NCBI GenBank assembly: GCA_012838135.1
Contig: DUPV01000060.1
Span: forward strand, 22,498 to 86,497
DNA from: Clostridiaceae bacterium
GTDB taxonomy: Bacteria > Bacillota > Clostridia > Saccharofermentanales > DTU023
Reading direction: 5' to 3'
Length of the DNA stretch: 64,000 nt
Below are positions 10,857 through 63,627 of this stretch, one piece after another. Position 1 is the stretch's first letter. Each line of letters opens with the position of its first letter. Both the position numbers and the translations under genes were made by a program. The notes beneath the pieces were generated by a model, which did no database searches, was not told where the DNA came from, and was given only the letters and a program-made list of their open reading frames with translations.

Positions 10857-10948
10857 GGAAGCGTAGCGAAGATGGCCGTAACGCGCCGCACTCGAAATGC
10901 GGTTGTCCAGAGATGGGCACGTGGGTTCGAATCCCACCGCTTCCGCCA
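10857..10948 (+). tRNA. tRNA-Ser (anticodon CGA), class II with long variable arm and encoded CCA
   Basis: Acceptor GGAAGCG/CGCTTCC, anticodon stem ccgca/tgcgg with loop cTCGAaa, 6 bp variable-arm stem, T arm gtgggTTCGAATcccac, discriminator G plus CCA. Confidence 0.9.
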
Positions 10949-54438: not shown

Positions 54439-55143
54439 GTGAAAAATAATTGTCCCGTAGCATTCTTCGCAATGTTATACAGAATGAAATATATTGAACG
54501 CTGGGGTTTGATGCGTAATACGGAAAAAGAAAACTTGAAAGAACACACTTTTGATGTTGCGTTACTTGCCCATGCTTTATGTGAAATACGCCAAGTCTAT
54601 TTTCCGGAAGAGAAACCGCAACCGGATCCGGGCAAGGTTGTTTTGTATGCTCTTTATCACGATGCAAGTGAAATTATTACGGGCGATTTGCCTACTCCGG
54701 TCAAATATTTTAATTCGCAAATACGTACTCAATATTCCAAAGTTGAAAATTATGCGATTGAACATCTGCTGAACATGCTGCCTGAAAAACTACAACAACG
54801 ATATGCTGAATATTTTCCCTGCGATGTAAATAACTTAAATTCAGCAGATAATTTAAACTCTATAGATGCAGAAATTACTGAATTTGTTGATGATAATGTT
54901 ATTTCTGAAAGAGTTTATCTGCAAAAAATGGTTAAGCAAGCAGATCGTTTAGCGGCTTATATTAAATGTATTATTGAAATAAAACAGGGTAATACTGAAT
55001 TTGTTGATGCGGCAGAAGCAACCAAAGCAAAACTGACCAATGACAGTTCGCCGGAATTGCAATGGTTTATCACGAATATTTTGCCGGCTTATCAGTTAAA
55101 TCTGGATCAATTGCAAGTATCACAAACAGAAGAATCAATATAA
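54439..55143 (+). CDS. YfbR-like HD-domain 5'-deoxynucleotidase
   Basis: RMKYIERWGLMRNTEKENLKEHTF..LYHDASE..GD. GTG start follows GAGGT. Confidence 0.75.
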   Translation: MKNNCPVAFFAMLYRMKYIERWGLMRNTEKENLKEHTFDVALLAHALCEIRQVYFPEEKPQPDPGKVVLYALYHDASEIITGDLPTPVKYFNSQIRTQYSKVENYAIEHLLNMLPEKLQQRYAEYFPCDVNNLNSADNLNSIDAEITEFVDDNVISERVYLQKMVKQADRLAAYIKCIIEIKQGNTEFVDAAEATKAKLTNDSSPELQWFITNILPAYQLNLDQLQVSQTEESI

Positions 55144-55299
55144 ACCGTATAATCTCGAGTGCTGATAAAAATTCAAAAACTAAGGCTTATTACCTATAAA
55201 TCGCAAACTCGGGCTAACGCCCTCAAACATGCGATTTATTAACGGTAATTTCGCCAAGTTTTTTAGAATTTTTCCATCAATCTCTCGCTCATACGGTTT
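55142..55299. repeat. ~158 nt extended imperfect palindrome / long hairpin
   Basis: Paired blocks: aaaccgtat/atacggttt, tgat/atca, aaaaattc/gaattttt, attacc/ggtaat, ataaatcgca/tgcgatttat, gggc/gccc. The apex is taac at 55215-18. Confidence 0.7.
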
Positions 55300-55526
55300 A
55301 TATTGAAAATAAATATTTGTTTTAAAACACTCATACATCATAAAGTTTAAATATTCATTTTGTATATTTTAAAGCAAGATTACTATTACAAAATAATCTC
55401 TGATTTCAGTTATTGTTGCAACGATTTTACAGACATAATAAATCTGCATCACGTACCGGTTTTCTTGTTCTGAAGAGCTTTTTAACATGTTAAAATAATT
55501 TTTACAACAAATGTTTGGAGTGGCGG

Positions 55527-57584
55527 ATGAATAAAGAACGTGCGAAAAATATCAGTACAATTATTATTGCTGTTTTTTTGTTAAGCATAATTCCTTTTAC
55601 TTTGCTTCTTAATCGAGAAACCGTAGCTGAATTGAATTTTCCGATTGAAGCAAAAGTTATTGCCATGCCCAGCCTTAACATCAGAAAAACTCCTGATTTA
55701 TCGCAAAATCCGATTGGTTCAATTCCTGCAGGTCAAGAGATTCTGCTTTTAGAACATACTGAAGGTCAGGCAATTAACGGTGATACAAATTGGTACAGAA
55801 TTGATTTCAGAAACCAGGATGGCTATGTTTCTGCCCAATTTATTGAATTTTCACCTTGGGAGATTGAGTTGCCACCGACAGCAAACGATCAGGATTTTGA
55901 AAACTATCTCGAAGAGCAGGGTTTTCCTTTTTCTTATCGAGCCGGATTACATAAATTACATAAAAAATATCCGAATTGGGTTTTTACACCGATCAAATTA
56001 AATATCGATTTTAGTTCTGCAGTCAATGGACAGTATAAGCCTGACAGTTCAATTAATTTCGTTCCTGCTGCATCAGAGGATGCTTTAAAATCAACCTCGT
56101 CAGCAGATTTTAACAAGGAAGCTAATCAATGGATTGAGAAAGAACGAGGTTGGGTTGCCGCAAGTAAAGAAATAATTGCTCATCAGCTTGACCCGAGAAA
56201 TTTTTTAGATGAACAGCATATCTTTCAATTTGAAAGTTTGAGCTATAATCCGGATGTTCAAAATTGGCAAGGTATTCGCAGTCAACTGACAGGAACGTTT
56301 ATGGATTCAGATGAATATGCAGATATTTTCTATAATGCAGCAGTGACTTCATCAGTATCCCCCTATCATTTGATTGCCAGAGTCAGACAAGAAGTATCAC
56401 CTAATGGTTCCGGCTCTTCAAGCGGCACTTATCCCGGCGTTGAAGGTTATTACAACTTCTTTAATATCGGTGCATATGGTACGGATCCGGTCTATGAGGG
56501 TTTAGTCTTCGCTCGGGACGGTTACAAAAACAATCCTGCAGCTAACGAGCGAATTATGATTCCTTGGAATACACCTGAAAGATCGATTACGGGGGGAGCT
56601 ATCTTTTTAGGTAATGATTATATTAATAATTTGCAAAACACTTTGTATTTTCAAAAATTCGACTTAAGACATGGTCCGGATTATTGGCACCAATATATGG
56701 CAAATGTATTTGCTCCGCAAAGTGAATCACGTACAATCTATCATGCTTATGCAGCGCAAGGCAGTCTGGCTGAGCCGAAGGAATTTTTAATTCCGGTATT
56801 TACTTCAATATCTGATTTGCCGACACCTTATCCAACCGGAGGTTTGGGCACACCAAATAACTGGTTGCGTTCAATCTCAATTGACGGAGCGTTATTGCCC
56901 GGCTTCGAGAGCTCTACCTATTCATATCAGCTGGAAGTAGATGCACCGAATTCTGAAATTACAATAGATGCAACACCATATAATCCTTATGCCGAAGTTA
57001 CCGGTCGAGGATCTTATTTTTTAAAAGAAGGCAAAAATCCGATTTTAATTGCGGTTACTGCAACCAACGGTTCAATTCGCAATTATGAAATAATTATCAA
57101 TTATCATGGCGGAACAACGGCAGAAGTTCCGCGAGTAGAGAGTTCTGTTTATCAAATCCAACCGGATGGTAATATTTACGGTTTGGATTTTACCCGGAAT
57201 TTAAACCTGGTAGAAAATGCTTTAAGCAATATAACAACTACAGATCAATATACATTGAGTATAGTTGATCTTGCTGATCAGGAAGTGACTCAAGGTTCAA
57301 TTGCCACCGGATATAAACTATTACAAAAACAAAACGGCAATGTAGTAGGTAAATATACATTTATCATATTGGGCGATGTGAATCGTGACGGTGATGTTGA
57401 TGTTTTGGACGTGGATTCGATATATCGATACATCACAGGTTTTTTGAATCTGGATGATACGCAGCTGCTTGCTGCAAATGTTTTACAAGATTCGGAAGTA
57501 GATATTTTGGATGCAGATCAGATTTATCGTTCTGTAGTCGGCTACACAAAAATTTCTCAATATTTAGAACCGTTATCCGAGTAG
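55527..57584 (+). CDS. Membrane-anchored peptidoglycan hydrolase: SH3b, GH73-like glucosaminidase, cadherin-like beta-sandwich, C-terminal dockerin
   Basis: SPYHLIARVRQE..YNFFNIGAYG..TLYFQKFD (glucosaminidase), LRSISIDGALLPGFESSTYSYQLEV, and dockerin repeats GDVNRDGDVDVLDVDSIYRYI / ANVLQDSEVDILDADQIYRSV. Confidence 0.75.
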   Translation: MNKERAKNISTIIIAVFLLSIIPFTLLLNRETVAELNFPIEAKVIAMPSLNIRKTPDLSQNPIGSIPAGQEILLLEHTEGQAINGDTNWYRIDFRNQDGYVSAQFIEFSPWEIELPPTANDQDFENYLEEQGFPFSYRAGLHKLHKKYPNWVFTPIKLNIDFSSAVNGQYKPDSSINFVPAASEDALKSTSSADFNKEANQWIEKERGWVAASKEIIAHQLDPRNFLDEQHIFQFESLSYNPDVQNWQGIRSQLTGTFMDSDEYADIFYNAAVTSSVSPYHLIARVRQEVSPNGSGSSSGTYPGVEGYYNFFNIGAYGTDPVYEGLVFARDGYKNNPAANERIMIPWNTPERSITGGAIFLGNDYINNLQNTLYFQKFDLRHGPDYWHQYMANVFAPQSESRTIYHAYAAQGSLAEPKEFLIPVFTSISDLPTPYPTGGLGTPNNWLRSISIDGALLPGFESSTYSYQLEVDAPNSEITIDATPYNPYAEVTGRGSYFLKEGKNPILIAVTATNGSIRNYEIIINYHGGTTAEVPRVESSVYQIQPDGNIYGLDFTRNLNLVENALSNITTTDQYTLSIVDLADQEVTQGSIATGYKLLQKQNGNVVGKYTFIILGDVNRDGDVDVLDVDSIYRYITGFLNLDDTQLLAANVLQDSEVDILDADQIYRSVVGYTKISQYLEPLSE

Positions 57585-57599
57585 TATTTAGGAGATAAT

Positions 57600-58925
57600 A
57601 TGCGCAAATATATGAAACAATTATTTTTATTCATAATAAGCTTGTTGTATCTCGGGGTTTTGATGGTCCGTCCGGTTTACGCTGCGGGTGCGGAATTCGT
57701 CATATCAGCGGAAAATGCATCTCCCGGTGATACCGTTACGGTTTCAATTGTAAATAACAGCGGTATAGCAGTTACTTCAGGTCAATTTGATTTAGTGTAT
57801 GATTCGGAGCGTTTTGAACTTGTGGGGGCAACTTTGTTTCAGGAAAGTGCAATGCCGTTTTATCTTGAAGAAGGCAGAACTGATAAATTCAGAATATCTA
57901 CGATACCTCTTACACCGAATCAGGCATATGCCGAACAGGTTATTGCATCAATTACTTTTAAGTTAAAAGATTCAGCAGATGGTCAAGCAACTTTTGAATT
58001 AGTAAAATCAAAAATCGGTTATGGCAATATTTATGAAAATGTTCAAAATTTGGAAGTTAGCGGAACAACCGTAGGCGTAAAAATTATGAATCCTGAACCG
58101 GGTGAACCGGCTGATCAGGGAATGGAAATTTCTGAAAAACCTGATCCGGATCCGCCACAACAGCCGACAGAAGATGAGCATTTGCAACCGTCAGAGCCTA
58201 AGCCGACCGAATCAACTGAACCGACCGAATCAACTGAACCAAACGAGCCAACGGAATCGAGCAAGCCGACTGACTTGAATGAGTTGACCGAACCGACCAA
58301 GCAGGAACAGCCAATTGTGACTTCTCAGCCGGACGGATCGGCAAAATCTGGCGATGATGTTACAACTAATCAATCAGACAATGAAAACAGAGAAACCAAT
58401 ACGACAACTTCTGAAGTTCTAAAGATTGCGACTGATGCTACAACACAAGATGAAATAAGAATTATTTCTACATTGGCACCCGCTGATACACAGACAACAC
58501 CTGCTCAGATTACGGAGCAGGCGATGAGTCGAACTGTGGTGCATACTGTTGAGACCGTGCCGACAATTGCTCTGGCTGTAATTACTTCTGCCGAAACGGA
58601 AGAAGTGTTGCAAAATAATACGCAAACTATGACCGAGCAATCTCAAACAATTACTACTAAAACTGAAACGACTACGAGTGCTGCAACTGAAAAAACGACT
58701 CCTGCAACTGTGCAGCAAATTATGGAAAATAGTCAAAATACTGAATTAAATTCAATTAATATAGAAGAACAGAAACAAGCTAAACAAGAACAAGCTTTTG
58801 AATTGACAGGTAATGAATTAAATATTAATAATAAACTTATGGTGGGAGGCTTGGCTATTACGGCAATAAGTTCCTTAGGAGCTCTGATTTTTTTAATCAT
58901 CAAAAATAATCTCAGACTAAGGTAG
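57600..58925 (+). CDS. Cohesin-domain protein with P/T/E-rich stalk and C-terminal membrane anchor
   Basis: Signal peptide ..VRPVYAAGA. Cohesin-like FVISAENASPGDTVTVSIVNNSGIAVTSGQFDLVYDSERFELVG. C-terminal TM helix LMVGGLAITAISSLGALIFLII. Confidence 0.7.
   Translation: MRKYMKQLFLFIISLLYLGVLMVRPVYAAGAEFVISAENASPGDTVTVSIVNNSGIAVTSGQFDLVYDSERFELVGATLFQESAMPFYLEEGRTDKFRISTIPLTPNQAYAEQVIASITFKLKDSADGQATFELVKSKIGYGNIYENVQNLEVSGTTVGVKIMNPEPGEPADQGMEISEKPDPDPPQQPTEDEHLQPSEPKPTESTEPTESTEPNEPTESSKPTDLNELTEPTKQEQPIVTSQPDGSAKSGDDVTTNQSDNENRETNTTTSEVLKIATDATTQDEIRIISTLAPADTQTTPAQITEQAMSRTVVHTVETVPTIALAVITSAETEEVLQNNTQTMTEQSQTITTKTETTTSAATEKTTPATVQQIMENSQNTELNSINIEEQKQAKQEQAFELTGNELNINNKLMVGGLAITAISSLGALIFLIIKNNLRLR
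58203..58292 (+). repeat. 18 bp in-frame tandem repeats encoding PTESTE-like hexapeptides
   Basis: ccgaccgaatcaactgaa occurs twice exactly (58203-38), followed by three degenerate units. Confidence 0.8.
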
Positions 58926-61965: not shown

Positions 61966-63627
61966 ATGCAATATCAATCGACGATTCAAGCAAGCAGAAA
62001 ATATACATTTTCTCAAATGCTGCGTGAAAGTGTGCCAATGCACGGAGGACTTTTTGTGCCTTGTGAATTGCCGAAGATTGACCAGGATTTCCTCAATCAA
62101 TTAAAACCGCTCTCTTTTCAAGCTCGGGCAGCCTGCATAATTCGATTATTTGCGCCTGAATTATCTGAACCGCAAATTAATCAAATATGTCAAACAGCAT
62201 TTAATCCGATGCATTTTCAATCAGAATTACTTTATGAAGCAAAACCGCTCAATCCATATTTAACCAACCCTTTATTTTTGTTTGTTGAGCGTGGACCTAC
62301 AAGTTGTTATATGGACTTAACTCATGCATTCAGTTTAGCTTGCCTGCAAACAGTGATGCAAGAAAATGAACAATGGCTTGTAATGACCGGTGAATCGTTG
62401 CAAAGTATTAAAAGTTTGGTTGCTTTGCATCTTGATGATTCGGCATGGGTTCCTGTCTTAATTACTGATAGTAAAGCAACCAACACTTATATTCTGAAAG
62501 AAATCCAACATATGCACAGTGTGGCAGCTCGATCTCAATATCGCTTATCCTATGCATTTTCTGACAAGGATTCAAATGATATGCCAAAACAAAATAAATT
62601 GGCTGTTGAGATGCCGATTATAGGCGATGCAGATGAATCGGAAAAAATAACAAATGATAATTTTAGCGAGCATGACGGTCGATTAAAATTGTACACAATC
62701 AACGGTAGAGTTCAAGATGTAGAATATTTTACACAAAATTTATTTTATCAAGAAAAACTTCGTTTAAGACTTAAAGAACAAAACAAATTTCTCGCAGCCA
62801 CGGGAAGTTTGTCCTTTACTCATCATTTAGCACTGATCATCATATTGCTATCGGCTTATTTGGATTTATTGAAGCAAGAATTAATTGCTGACAGCGAAAA
62901 TTTTTGCTTAGCCTTCCCCAATATGAATCTTGATTTCCTATATGCCGGTCAACTTTTGCAAAAAATGGGTTTGCCGGTGTCAAACTTGATTGCTGCATCC
63001 AATAGCAATCGGGCAATTGATGATTTTCTGCGTCAGGGAAAATACAAATTGAAACGCAGATTTTCACGAACTACTGCACCGGCTCTTGATCAAATCTATT
63101 TACCGAATTTGGAACGAGTCCTGTTTGAGATTACTGAGCATGATTGTCAAACAACATATCAAATAATGACAGATTTATTTAAATTCGGACGGATCAATTT
63201 AGTTCCTGAAATTAAGCAGAAACTTTCTGACTTGATTCAATCAGGTTATGCCAACAATAACCAAATTATAGAACAAATTCGAAATTGGTATCTAAGGACA
63301 GATTATCTTTTTGATCCGTATACGGCTTTAGCTTTAATTGTATTGGAGCGTTTTGAGCAAAGTCTATCAAATACAAACAAAACGATTGTGCCTGTGATTG
63401 AGAGTCCGTTATTGTCTGTTCAAGTTACAGCTGAGGCAATTATTGAACAAGACAAAAACATTAAAATGAATTACAATCGCTTACTGGAGGCACTATCTGA
63501 AGAATCCGGCATTGAAATTCCTTTGGCTGCTCTTTCCGGTGAACAAAAACCGGAAGTCATCAACCTTGATATTGAACAGATGAGTGAGCGTATTCAGGCA
63601 GATTTACTCAAGATTGGTCAAAACTGA
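61966..63627 (+). CDS. Threonine-synthase-like protein lacking the PLP lysine (probable pseudoenzyme)
   Basis: Thr_synth_N-like YQSTIQ..HGGLFVPCELPKI. Colinear with long-type ThrC, but GPTLAFKD is replaced by GPTSCYMD, and SGDTG and SGNFG are replaced by GESLQ and NMNLD. Confidence 0.65.
   Translation: MQYQSTIQASRKYTFSQMLRESVPMHGGLFVPCELPKIDQDFLNQLKPLSFQARAACIIRLFAPELSEPQINQICQTAFNPMHFQSELLYEAKPLNPYLTNPLFLFVERGPTSCYMDLTHAFSLACLQTVMQENEQWLVMTGESLQSIKSLVALHLDDSAWVPVLITDSKATNTYILKEIQHMHSVAARSQYRLSYAFSDKDSNDMPKQNKLAVEMPIIGDADESEKITNDNFSEHDGRLKLYTINGRVQDVEYFTQNLFYQEKLRLRLKEQNKFLAATGSLSFTHHLALIIILLSAYLDLLKQELIADSENFCLAFPNMNLDFLYAGQLLQKMGLPVSNLIAASNSNRAIDDFLRQGKYKLKRRFSRTTAPALDQIYLPNLERVLFEITEHDCQTTYQIMTDLFKFGRINLVPEIKQKLSDLIQSGYANNNQIIEQIRNWYLRTDYLFDPYTALALIVLERFEQSLSNTNKTIVPVIESPLLSVQVTAEAIIEQDKNIKMNYNRLLEALSEESGIEIPLAALSGEQKPEVINLDIEQMSERIQADLLKIGQN

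Follow-up and report, generated by a model that had tools for sequence, protein, structure and literature searches.

A conserved two-gene cohesin–dockerin module that probably keeps a GH73 autolysin on the producing cell in Clostridia

Cohesin–dockerin pairs are the textbook tools of plant-fibre-degrading machines, and the lone cohesin and lone dockerin found in many non-cellulolytic gut Firmicutes are a recurring puzzle of cellulosome genomics. What might such a pair do? We address this question at two adjacent genes in 64,000 nucleotides of DNA from a Clostridiaceae bacterium (GTDB lineage Bacteria; Bacillota; Clostridia; Saccharofermentanales; DTU023; NCBI GenBank assembly GCA_012838135.1, contig DUPV01000060.1, positions 22,498 to 86,497 of the forward strand), the whole of which we call the window and number from its first letter. 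The first open reading frame (ORF), ORF A (55527–57584, 685 residues), encodes a secreted or membrane-anchored N-acetylglucosaminidase of glycoside hydrolase family 73 (GH73) with a C-terminal dockerin, and the second, ORF B (57600–58925, 441 residues), a bitopic membrane protein that displays a single cohesin; both lie on the + strand, as do all their parts given below.

The reading we favour, with a probability of about 0.62, is that the two genes are a co-transcribed, one-to-one cohesin–dockerin module by which a GH73 autolysin stays attached to its producer. The tethering idea was already present in a preliminary description of this DNA, which had delimited both reading frames exactly, and it is now strongly backed, at the level of genome comparison, by the conserved adjacency of the two genes across Clostridia. 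This family-wide conservation and a small module in front of the dockerin are the two features that the preliminary description had not contained.

ORF A is a GH73 hydrolase that ends in a dockerin

The assignment of the core of ORF A to GH73 is solid and draws on a protein family model, searches of structure sequences, catalytic columns and predicted structure. The catalytic domain spans residues 122–424, with a conserved N-terminal extension (55890–56798). It has no match at E ≤ 1 to Pfam Glucosaminidase (PF01832); the NCBIfam SagB model covers residues 187–408 at E = 2.4 × 10−16, far under its equivalog cut-off, and phmmer against the chains of the PDB retrieves Staphylococcus aureus SagB (6fxp and 6u0o; E = 1 × 10−11), the Atl glucosaminidase (6fxo) and AtlE (4pi7), with E values from 1 × 10−11 to 3 × 10−7. 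The AlphaFold2 model of ORF A, built from a 105-sequence alignment with a mean pLDDT (predicted local distance difference test) of 88.8, shows the lysozyme-like alpha/beta fold of GH73, and its best 13 Foldseek matches in the PDB are all GH73 autolysins. They are led by 6u0o_B, from the SagB–SpdC complex (3.9 × 10−12), and include 6fxp, 6fxo, 4pi7-a (4pi entries), 5wqw/8yxn and 7pj4/4q2w, the proteins behind these entries being SagB, Atl, AtlE, Clostridium perfringens Acp and pneumococcal LytB. Target-normalised TM scores are 0.56–0.77 for the top eleven and 0.41–0.43 for the two LytB entries.

The catalytic residues are in place. In the phmmer alignment, Glu289 (codon 56391–56393), the predicted catalytic general acid in the motif RQEVS, occupies the column of the catalytic Glu of SagB (LLETG), and HQYMAN is aligned with HQYATD of SagB, in the column of an HQY(M/A)xN motif that corresponds to the QYATD-type Tyr motif of GH73 enzymes. 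E289, H388, Q389, Y390 and M391 are invariant in both the 14- and the 105-sequence alignments of homologues. On these grounds ORF A is predicted to be an active glucosaminidase on peptidoglycan.

The catalytic domain is preceded by an N-terminal hydrophobic helix (residues 2–28; 55530–55610), predicted as a helix by AlphaFold2 and with a hydrophobic run of 20 residues compared to a family median of 18, which is either a signal peptide, perhaps cleaved behind ETVA, or else a signal anchor. Between the two lies an SH3b domain (residues 40–108; 55644–55850), likely a wall-binding module, which is matched by Pfam SH3_3 at residues 49–106 (E = 7 × 10−10), is modelled as a beta domain and finds bacterial SH3 domains in Foldseek. 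Downstream of the catalytic domain, a cadherin-like beta-sandwich (residues 447–527; 56865–57107) is supported by Pfam PF12733 at residues 448–524 (E = 2.8 × 10−8) and by the strands of the model. It is followed, directly 5′ of the dockerin, by a small alpha/beta module (residues 535–612; 57129–57362) that has no match among Pfam families, is modelled as mixed strand and helix with a pLDDT of about 81–96 per 10-residue block, and is kept among relatives in the homologue alignments. This module may be an X-module-like helper, as in the X-dockerins of types II and III.

The dockerin itself (residues 613–678; 57363–57560) consists of two repeats of 22 residues, in each of which an EF-hand-like loop leads into a helix. 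Pfam Dockerin_1 (PF00404) matches residues 615–667 with E = 1.5 × 10−4 and 22.4 bits, just short of the gathering cut-off of 22.9, whereas a hidden Markov model (HMM) of the family itself finds the domain at E = 8 × 10−21, and most of the 120 homologues listed for ORF A carry a precomputed PF00404 match. The AlphaFold2 model has three helices (626–636, 644–650 and 660–670) with pLDDT above 90. The first repeat, DVNRDGDVDVLDVDSIYRYITG, contains a canonical Ca loop, DVNRDGDVDVLD. The loop of the second repeat, NVLQDSEVDILDADQIYRSVVG, is degenerate: NVLQDSEVDILD deviates from the family consensus DVNxDG at positions 1, 3 and 6 and has lost ligand positions, the Leu at position 3 giving no Ca ligation. 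Both recognition helices are retained, with VDxLDxDxIYR in each repeat. Relatives of ORF A mostly have two canonical Ca loops and often two near-identical repeats.

The module order that the preliminary description had read from the letters, namely an SH3b-like segment, a glucosaminidase-like core, a cadherin-like beta-sandwich and a duplicated Ca-loop segment with a degenerate second repeat, is therefore borne out in each of its parts. It had also named four Pfam families by which the two proteins might be recognised, and these behave unevenly: cohesin (PF00963, 27.5 bits against a cut-off of 24.1, in ORF B) and cadherin-like (PF12733) are found, the dockerin falls marginally short, and PF01832 finds nothing, so that the glucosaminidase HMM on its own would have looked negative.

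ORF B displays a single cohesin on a membrane-anchored stalk

ORF B begins with a signal peptide (residues 1–28; 57600–57683) that ends in RPVYA, with cleavage expected before the following AG, a site context that is conserved across homologues. The cohesin module occupies residues 29–170 (57684–58109). Pfam Cohesin matches residues 33–143 at E = 4 × 10−6, and an AlphaFold2 model of residues 29–180, built from 8 sequences (pLDDT 82.2), is all-beta with 10 strands; model and Foldseek together agree with the nine-stranded jelly-roll beta-sandwich by which cohesins are defined. Its roughly 45 best matches in the PDB are all cohesins with probability 1.00. The best are the non-cellulosomal cohesins of C. 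perfringens (2jh2, 2w1n and 2vo8), and others include the dockerin-bound type-I structures 5nrm, 6kgf, 2vn5 and 3ul4, as well as 1g1k; the fold matches cohesins of types I, II and III.

The cohesin is followed by an acidic low-complexity stalk (residues 172–415; 58113–58844), delimited by composition and alignment, of 244 residues, 57% of them P, T, E, Q or S, with a net charge of −31. The stalk terminates in a conserved juxtamembrane segment, EEQKQAKQEQAFELTGNELN. Around residues 389–412 (58764–58835), EEQKQAKQEQAF(E/K)LTGNELN is kept even in homologues of ORF B whose overall identity is as low as 33% (43–44% in locally aligned matches), and the remaining stalk is not. A hydropathy scan places a transmembrane helix at residues 416–434 (58845–58901), and the protein closes with a basic tail of 7 residues, KNNLRLR (58902–58922). 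The signal peptide, single cohesin-like module, P/T/E/Q stalk and C-terminal transmembrane helix that had been proposed for this protein are thus all present.

The pair is conserved across Clostridia

The two genes lie in the same reading frame, with 15 nucleotides between them. Ribosome-binding sites can be read directly for each: a GGAG at 55517–55520, 6 nucleotides 5′ of the ATG of ORF A, which speaks for a start at ATG 55527 rather than at the upstream TTG 55515, and an AGGAG at 57590–57594, within the gap and 5 nucleotides 5′ of the ATG of ORF B. A terminator scan found no convincing terminator in this gap and, for that reason, the genes are probably co-transcribed; promoter and terminator scans came out at or below shuffle expectation and were given no weight.

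ORF A belongs to a large family. More than 1,455 homologues were found at E ≤ 1 × 10−3, mostly of the same architecture and with a precomputed dockerin match, the nearest (88–94% identity) coming from metagenome-assembled genomes labelled Saccharofermentanales or Clostridiaceae. Scanning one genome per species, which gives a lower bound, we found relatives of ORF A in at least 582 species genomes. Carriers include Lachnospira eligens, L. intestinalis, Bovifimicola, Roseburia, Agathobacter and Faecalimonas, and further Ruminococcus, Acutalibacteraceae, Oscillospiraceae and metagenome-assembled genomes labelled ‘Bacilli’; the module is one of hundreds of mostly non-cellulolytic Clostridia. Searches with ORF B return far fewer sequences, namely 6 in a word-indexed search and 58 at E ≤ 1 × 10−3 when phmmer was run exhaustively with its cohesin against 1.84 billion representatives, from which we conclude that the cohesin protein diverges fast, much faster than ORF A. 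A profile of 66 partner cohesin modules gave 3 matches in the word-indexed database, a search that was probably swamped by signal-peptide and low-complexity words.

We then scored 82 loci (the 80 best and two others, numbered with the prefix L) with family-specific HMMs. A dockerin-bearing hydrolase with an adjoining cohesin gene is present in 70 of the 82, with one copy of the pair per locus in the loci examined. The cohesin gene lies directly downstream on the same strand in 71 loci and directly upstream in divergent orientation in 4; these four, of Ruminococcus/Oscillospiraceae type (L014, L025, L075 and L083), retain the pairing and not the operon. Five apparent absences of the pair are contig ends. 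The pair is also retained where its neighbourhood has changed wholly: L001 shares synteny with the window (HD, YfbR, pair, GtrA, FolC, TPR, ThrC), whereas in L003 the upstream genes are dapF and those of an aminotransferase and an LD-carboxypeptidase, and downstream there is a cold-shock gene.

Some loci depart from this pattern. In five (L069, L079, L081, L082 and L084) a cohesin-like partner adjoins a longer hydrolase that lacks a dockerin; these hydrolases have 835–1,114 residues and 2–5 SH3_3 repeats and end at the cadherin-like domain, and their partners are composed of a cohesin-like domain, a cadherin-like domain and a transmembrane helix (for example, hydrolase L084:2967–6308 and partner L084:6320–7636). 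Either another contact joins the two proteins there, or the partner has a second role. In five other loci, a dockerin is present with no cohesin within 5 kilobases.

Among partners encoded downstream, 31 of 67 match Pfam Cohesin and 59 of 67 Cadherin-like, and all 66 full-length partners have a signal peptide and exactly one strong transmembrane helix near the C terminus. The spacer between the cohesin and this helix measures 183–359 residues (median 276) across the 66 partners and the window, and its length is kept whether it is folded, with a cadherin-like domain and Tyr-rich PxG[FY]...YxY repeats, or a disordered acidic stalk, which is consistent with a constraint on length. By comparison, ORF B is a reduced variant: it has no cadherin-like domain, Tyr-rich region or long cytoplasmic tail, the disordered stalk replacing the first two. 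Its nearest relatives in named genomes (L005, L006 and L008) likewise have tails of 6–8 residues and no cadherin-like domain.

Most partners differ from ORF B on the cytoplasmic side. Tails of at least 50 residues, acidic in character, occur in 41 of 66, and 20 of the 66 end in the pattern [DEN]-hydrophobic-[DEKTS]-hydrophobic-hydrophobic-[DES]-hydrophobic, compared to 0.3 expected by shuffling. Examples are DLEFIDL, DIEVIDF(NDL) and EIEFVDL, and the loci concerned are L010, L020, L021, L023, L027, L029, L035–L037, L039, L050, L051, L054, L056, L057, L070, L071, L073, L074 and L076. This suggests a cytoplasmic binding partner for the acidic tails in most lineages.

The genes around the pair are of a housekeeping kind. 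In the window the order is fabF ... hpf, pcrA, an HD dGTPase-like gene, yfbR, the pair, gtrA, folC, a gene for a transmembrane protein and a ThrC-like gene. Taking the loci together, the genes met most often upstream are purD (11), prfC (6) and HD/dgt (6), and those met most often downstream clpC (12, with mcsB in 4) and folC (5–6). No phage, transposon, secretion-system or toxin-immunity genes flank the pair across these loci. A role in sporulation or germination was considered and set aside: nothing seen in the context spoke for it, and the family spans taxa of mixed sporulation ability.

Relation to known cohesin–dockerin and hydrolase systems

Cellulosomes and amylosomes comprise a multi-cohesin scaffoldin and several polysaccharide-degrading enzymes, usually with a carbohydrate-binding module (CBM). 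In the window, by contrast, family HMMs find one dockerin and one cohesin, and neither the pair nor the 64 kilobases contain a CBM or a plant-polymer or starch hydrolase; the one-to-one layout recurs in the loci of relatives. With multi-cohesin scaffoldin and polysaccharide-degrading cargo both absent, the pair is not a cellulosome, and the non-cellulosomal setting that had been proposed for it holds throughout the window. It resembles the anchoring scaffoldins of cellulosomes (Clostridium thermocellum SdbA and OlpB, attached through SLH domains, and Ruminococcus flavefaciens ScaE, attached by sortase) in that a surface cohesin would capture a dockerin protein. It differs from them in having one cohesin per enzyme and neither multi-cohesin scaffoldin nor CBM, in a cargo predicted to cut the cell’s own wall rather than plant polymer, in a C-terminal transmembrane anchor in place of SLH or LPXTG, and in its distribution over mostly non-cellulolytic taxa. 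We consider the pair best filed as a variant of cohesin–dockerin surface anchoring that is one-to-one, transmembrane-anchored, loaded with an autolysin and set in a housekeeping context.

Two non-cellulosomal or minimal systems are close in part. In C. perfringens, cohesin (X82)–dockerin pairs join secreted glycosidases and toxins (summarised in PMC12997984); these too are single cohesins, and they are the top structural match of ORF B, but they sit on secreted host-glycan hydrolases and form enzyme–enzyme complexes rather than membrane anchors for an autolysin. ClcC–ClcD of Cellulosilyticum lentocellum is an adjacent minimal pair for which a heterodimer was shown experimentally (PMC13487519). 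It resembles our pair in its adjacent co-transcribed genes, its dockerin with a single intact recognition repeat and the one cohesin and one dockerin of the C. lentocellum genome, and differs in its GH5 cellulase cargo, the CBM3 on its cohesin protein, the lack of a membrane anchor and its role in cellulose degradation; as a system of GH5 and CBM3, that ‘minimal cellulosome’ does not describe the module studied here.

On the hydrolase side, the closest relative of the catalytic domain is SagB in the S. aureus SagB–SpdC complex (6u0o), which, as here, is a membrane-side GH73 enzyme with a dedicated membrane-protein partner. There, however, the transmembrane helix of SagB binds the polytopic, CAAX-protease-like SpdC within the bilayer, whereas ORF B is bitopic and would make its contact outside the cell, cohesin to dockerin. 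Only the catalytic domain is related and, as the partner type differs, the pair is not a SagB–SpdC complex.

Parts of the module have been noticed before. Ruminococcus bicirculans carries a lone cohesin and a lone dockerin ‘associated with a GH73 enzyme’ (Wegmann et al. 2014, cited in Ze et al. 2015, PMC4611034), a case that agrees with ours in a non-cellulolytic gut Firmicute, a single dockerin, a single cohesin and GH73 cargo; as cited there, it is a one-line genomic remark that does not touch on topology, distribution, binding or function. Our loci include some from Ruminococcus and Oscillospiraceae (L010, L012, L014, L025 and L075), and for this reason the R. bicirculans pair, as that remark describes it, very probably belongs to the same gene family as ORF A and ORF B. 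GH73 also appears among the glycoside hydrolases that Dassa et al. 2014 (PMC4081043) give, in their comparison, as unique to R. albus; the lone cohesin of R. albus, a ScaF-like adaptor, is a different protein. Minor et al. 2024 (PMC11557425) describe single-cohesin proteins with a C-terminal transmembrane helix whose partners are ‘unclear’, the ‘nonSLH-anchoring scaffoldins’ of H. luporum, C. cibarium and Lachnoclostridium sp. MSJ-17. Their described architecture, one cohesin with a transmembrane helix at the C terminus, sets them beside ORF B and suggests an adjacent GH73–dockerin protein as the partner for this type. Dockerins have further been reported on lysozyme-like and DD-carboxypeptidase modules in rumen metagenomes, with a role in attack or defence suggested (Bensoussan et al. 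2017, PMC6487960), and the possibility has been raised that wall hydrolases with dockerins form a ‘lyticome’ (Vermassen et al. 2019, PMC6403190).

A literature search, with subscription journals outside its coverage, found no paper on the two-gene module, its bitopic partner, its breadth or a functional test of it. The existence of the pair has thus been remarked once or twice, and it is not wholly new: the preliminary description was fair in calling this use of the interaction under-described and, given the four reports PMC4611034 (as far as that remark goes), PMC6403190, PMC6487960 and PMC11557425, somewhat overstated the case.

How the pair may act, and what else it could be

In the proposed mechanism, ORF B would be exported, its signal peptide removed and the protein kept in the membrane by its C-terminal helix, so that the acidic flexible stalk would hold the cohesin at a distance of some 250 residues, within the wall or just beneath it. 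ORF A would be exported in turn, and its dockerin is predicted to bind the cohesin of ORF B by plugging into it, probably with Ca2+ in at least loop 1. The SH3b and GH73 domains would then work on the cell’s own peptidoglycan, to trim glycan strands, turn over the wall or separate daughter cells, while the tether would restrict the diffusion of the enzyme and set its cutting distance from the membrane; by limiting diffusion, it would also limit self-lysis and loss of the enzyme. Wall turnover, glycan-strand trimming and daughter-cell separation are the roles of the related SagB, Atl, AtlE, Acp and LytB. The earlier suggestion that the genes park either an autolysin or an inter-bacterial lysin on a stalk can accordingly be narrowed, its autolysin half being favoured by the housekeeping neighbours and by this kinship, and its lysin half not.

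Several observations weigh against a simple tether. The dockerin lies just under the Pfam cut-off and has a degenerate second Ca loop. A tether for retention would be redundant if ORF A kept its N-terminal helix uncleaved, as an anchor. The partner is retained in the five loci with a dockerin-less hydrolase, and five loci have a dockerin with no cohesin nearby, which means that the partner may do more than tether or may bind elsewhere. Finally, the signal of co-evolution between dockerin and cohesin is not specific: a mirror-tree analysis by partial Mantel test, given the catalytic domain, yields a partial r of 0.23–0.29 with 0 of 2,000 permutations as high, but the control domains reach the same level (SH3 0.26, cadherin-like 0.26). 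The correlation therefore reflects shared ancestry rather than co-evolution of an interface, and we rejected it as evidence for one.

The alternative that survives best, although we still regard it as unlikely, is that ORF B regulates or localises the hydrolase, as a bitopic transmembrane adaptor rather than a passive tether: it would activate, inhibit or position the enzyme, and in most family members its acidic tail would couple the enzyme to a cytoplasmic factor. Such logic is analogous to FtsEX–PcsB/CwlO, SagB–SpdC and LytH–ActH. Retention of the partner beside dockerin-less hydrolases speaks for it, the long tails and their recurrent DLEFIDL-type ends fit it, the cadherin-like domain is usually on both proteins, and SagB, the best structural match of the enzyme, works in complex with a membrane protein. 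Yet ORF B and its relatives in L005, L006 and L008, with short tails and no cadherin-like domain, have little left to regulate with, and no cytoplasmic partner was identified.

A more elaborate form of this idea, which we hold to be just as unlikely, treats the cohesin protein as a transmembrane coupling device and an autolysin controller of a new class. The cohesin–dockerin plug would replace contacts of the FtsEX or SpdC type, the spacer of about 180–360 residues would serve as a ruler of wall depth, and the acidic tail with its DLEFIDL-like end would recruit the complex to a landmark in the cytoplasm, for example the divisome or elongasome, in most lineages; the version in the window would then be stripped down, its tail lost and its folded spacer turned into a disordered stalk.

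It is quite improbable that dockerin and cohesin are non-cognate, their adjacency being one of shared regulation or ancestry and each binding something else, for instance dockerin proteins encoded elsewhere in the genome or a wall polymer. The lack of a dockerin-specific co-evolution signal and the two groups of five loci that have one module without the other speak for this, but both are kept in 70 of 82 loci, also where the neighbourhood is rearranged and even where the two genes diverge in orientation, the window has one dockerin and one cohesin within its 64 kilobases, and R. bicirculans is reported, in the remark cited above, with exactly one of each together with GH73. Least probable of all, and very much so, is an inter-bacterial weapon whose stalk projects a lytic glucosaminidase past the wall of the producer against neighbours on contact: the attack-or-defence and lyticome proposals lend it some colour and a 244-residue extended stalk could in principle span the wall, but it is disfavoured by the core-genome context, with the pair syntenic across distant taxa and no immunity-like or secretion-system gene near it, and by the kinship of the enzyme with endogenous autolysins. 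When they attack an intact Gram-positive wall from outside, GH73 enzymes are, moreover, generally poor killers, which also counts against a weapon.

Other features of the window

The 371 nucleotides 5′ of ORF A contain nested inverted repeats at 55143–55308, in which AAACCGTAT...ATACGGTTT surrounds AAATCGCA...TGCGATTT, and which may serve as a terminator for yfbR or as a regulatory leader. This region has no Rfam match at E ≤ 1. Control of ORF A by a riboswitch is unsupported, as Rfam searches of the upstream region and of the whole window gave nothing but a tRNA: the tRNA-Ser (anticodon CGA) at 10857–10948 is the sole RNA gene found by Rfam and ARAGORN in the window. Downstream of the pair, a 553-residue ORF at 61966–63627 matches only Thr_synth_N at E ≤ 1 × 10−4, whereas its syntenic counterpart in L001 has PALP and THR4_C matches too; the ORF may encode a ThrC-like protein that has diverged or degenerated.

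What the module would mean

For one large class of cases, the puzzle of the lone cohesin and dockerin finds a concrete candidate answer in a conserved two-gene module, present in at least 582 species that include abundant Lachnospiraceae of the human gut, whose most likely task is to keep a GH73 autolysin on a membrane stalk. If our reading is right, the module would represent a new mode of control for Gram-positive cell-wall hydrolases and would supply the partner that ‘TM-anchored single-cohesin scaffoldins’ have lacked. Cohesins and dockerins of this kind would then have to be counted with caution as signs of a cellulosome in metagenomes, and the two proteins would offer a natural, minimal and orthogonal pair for surface display.

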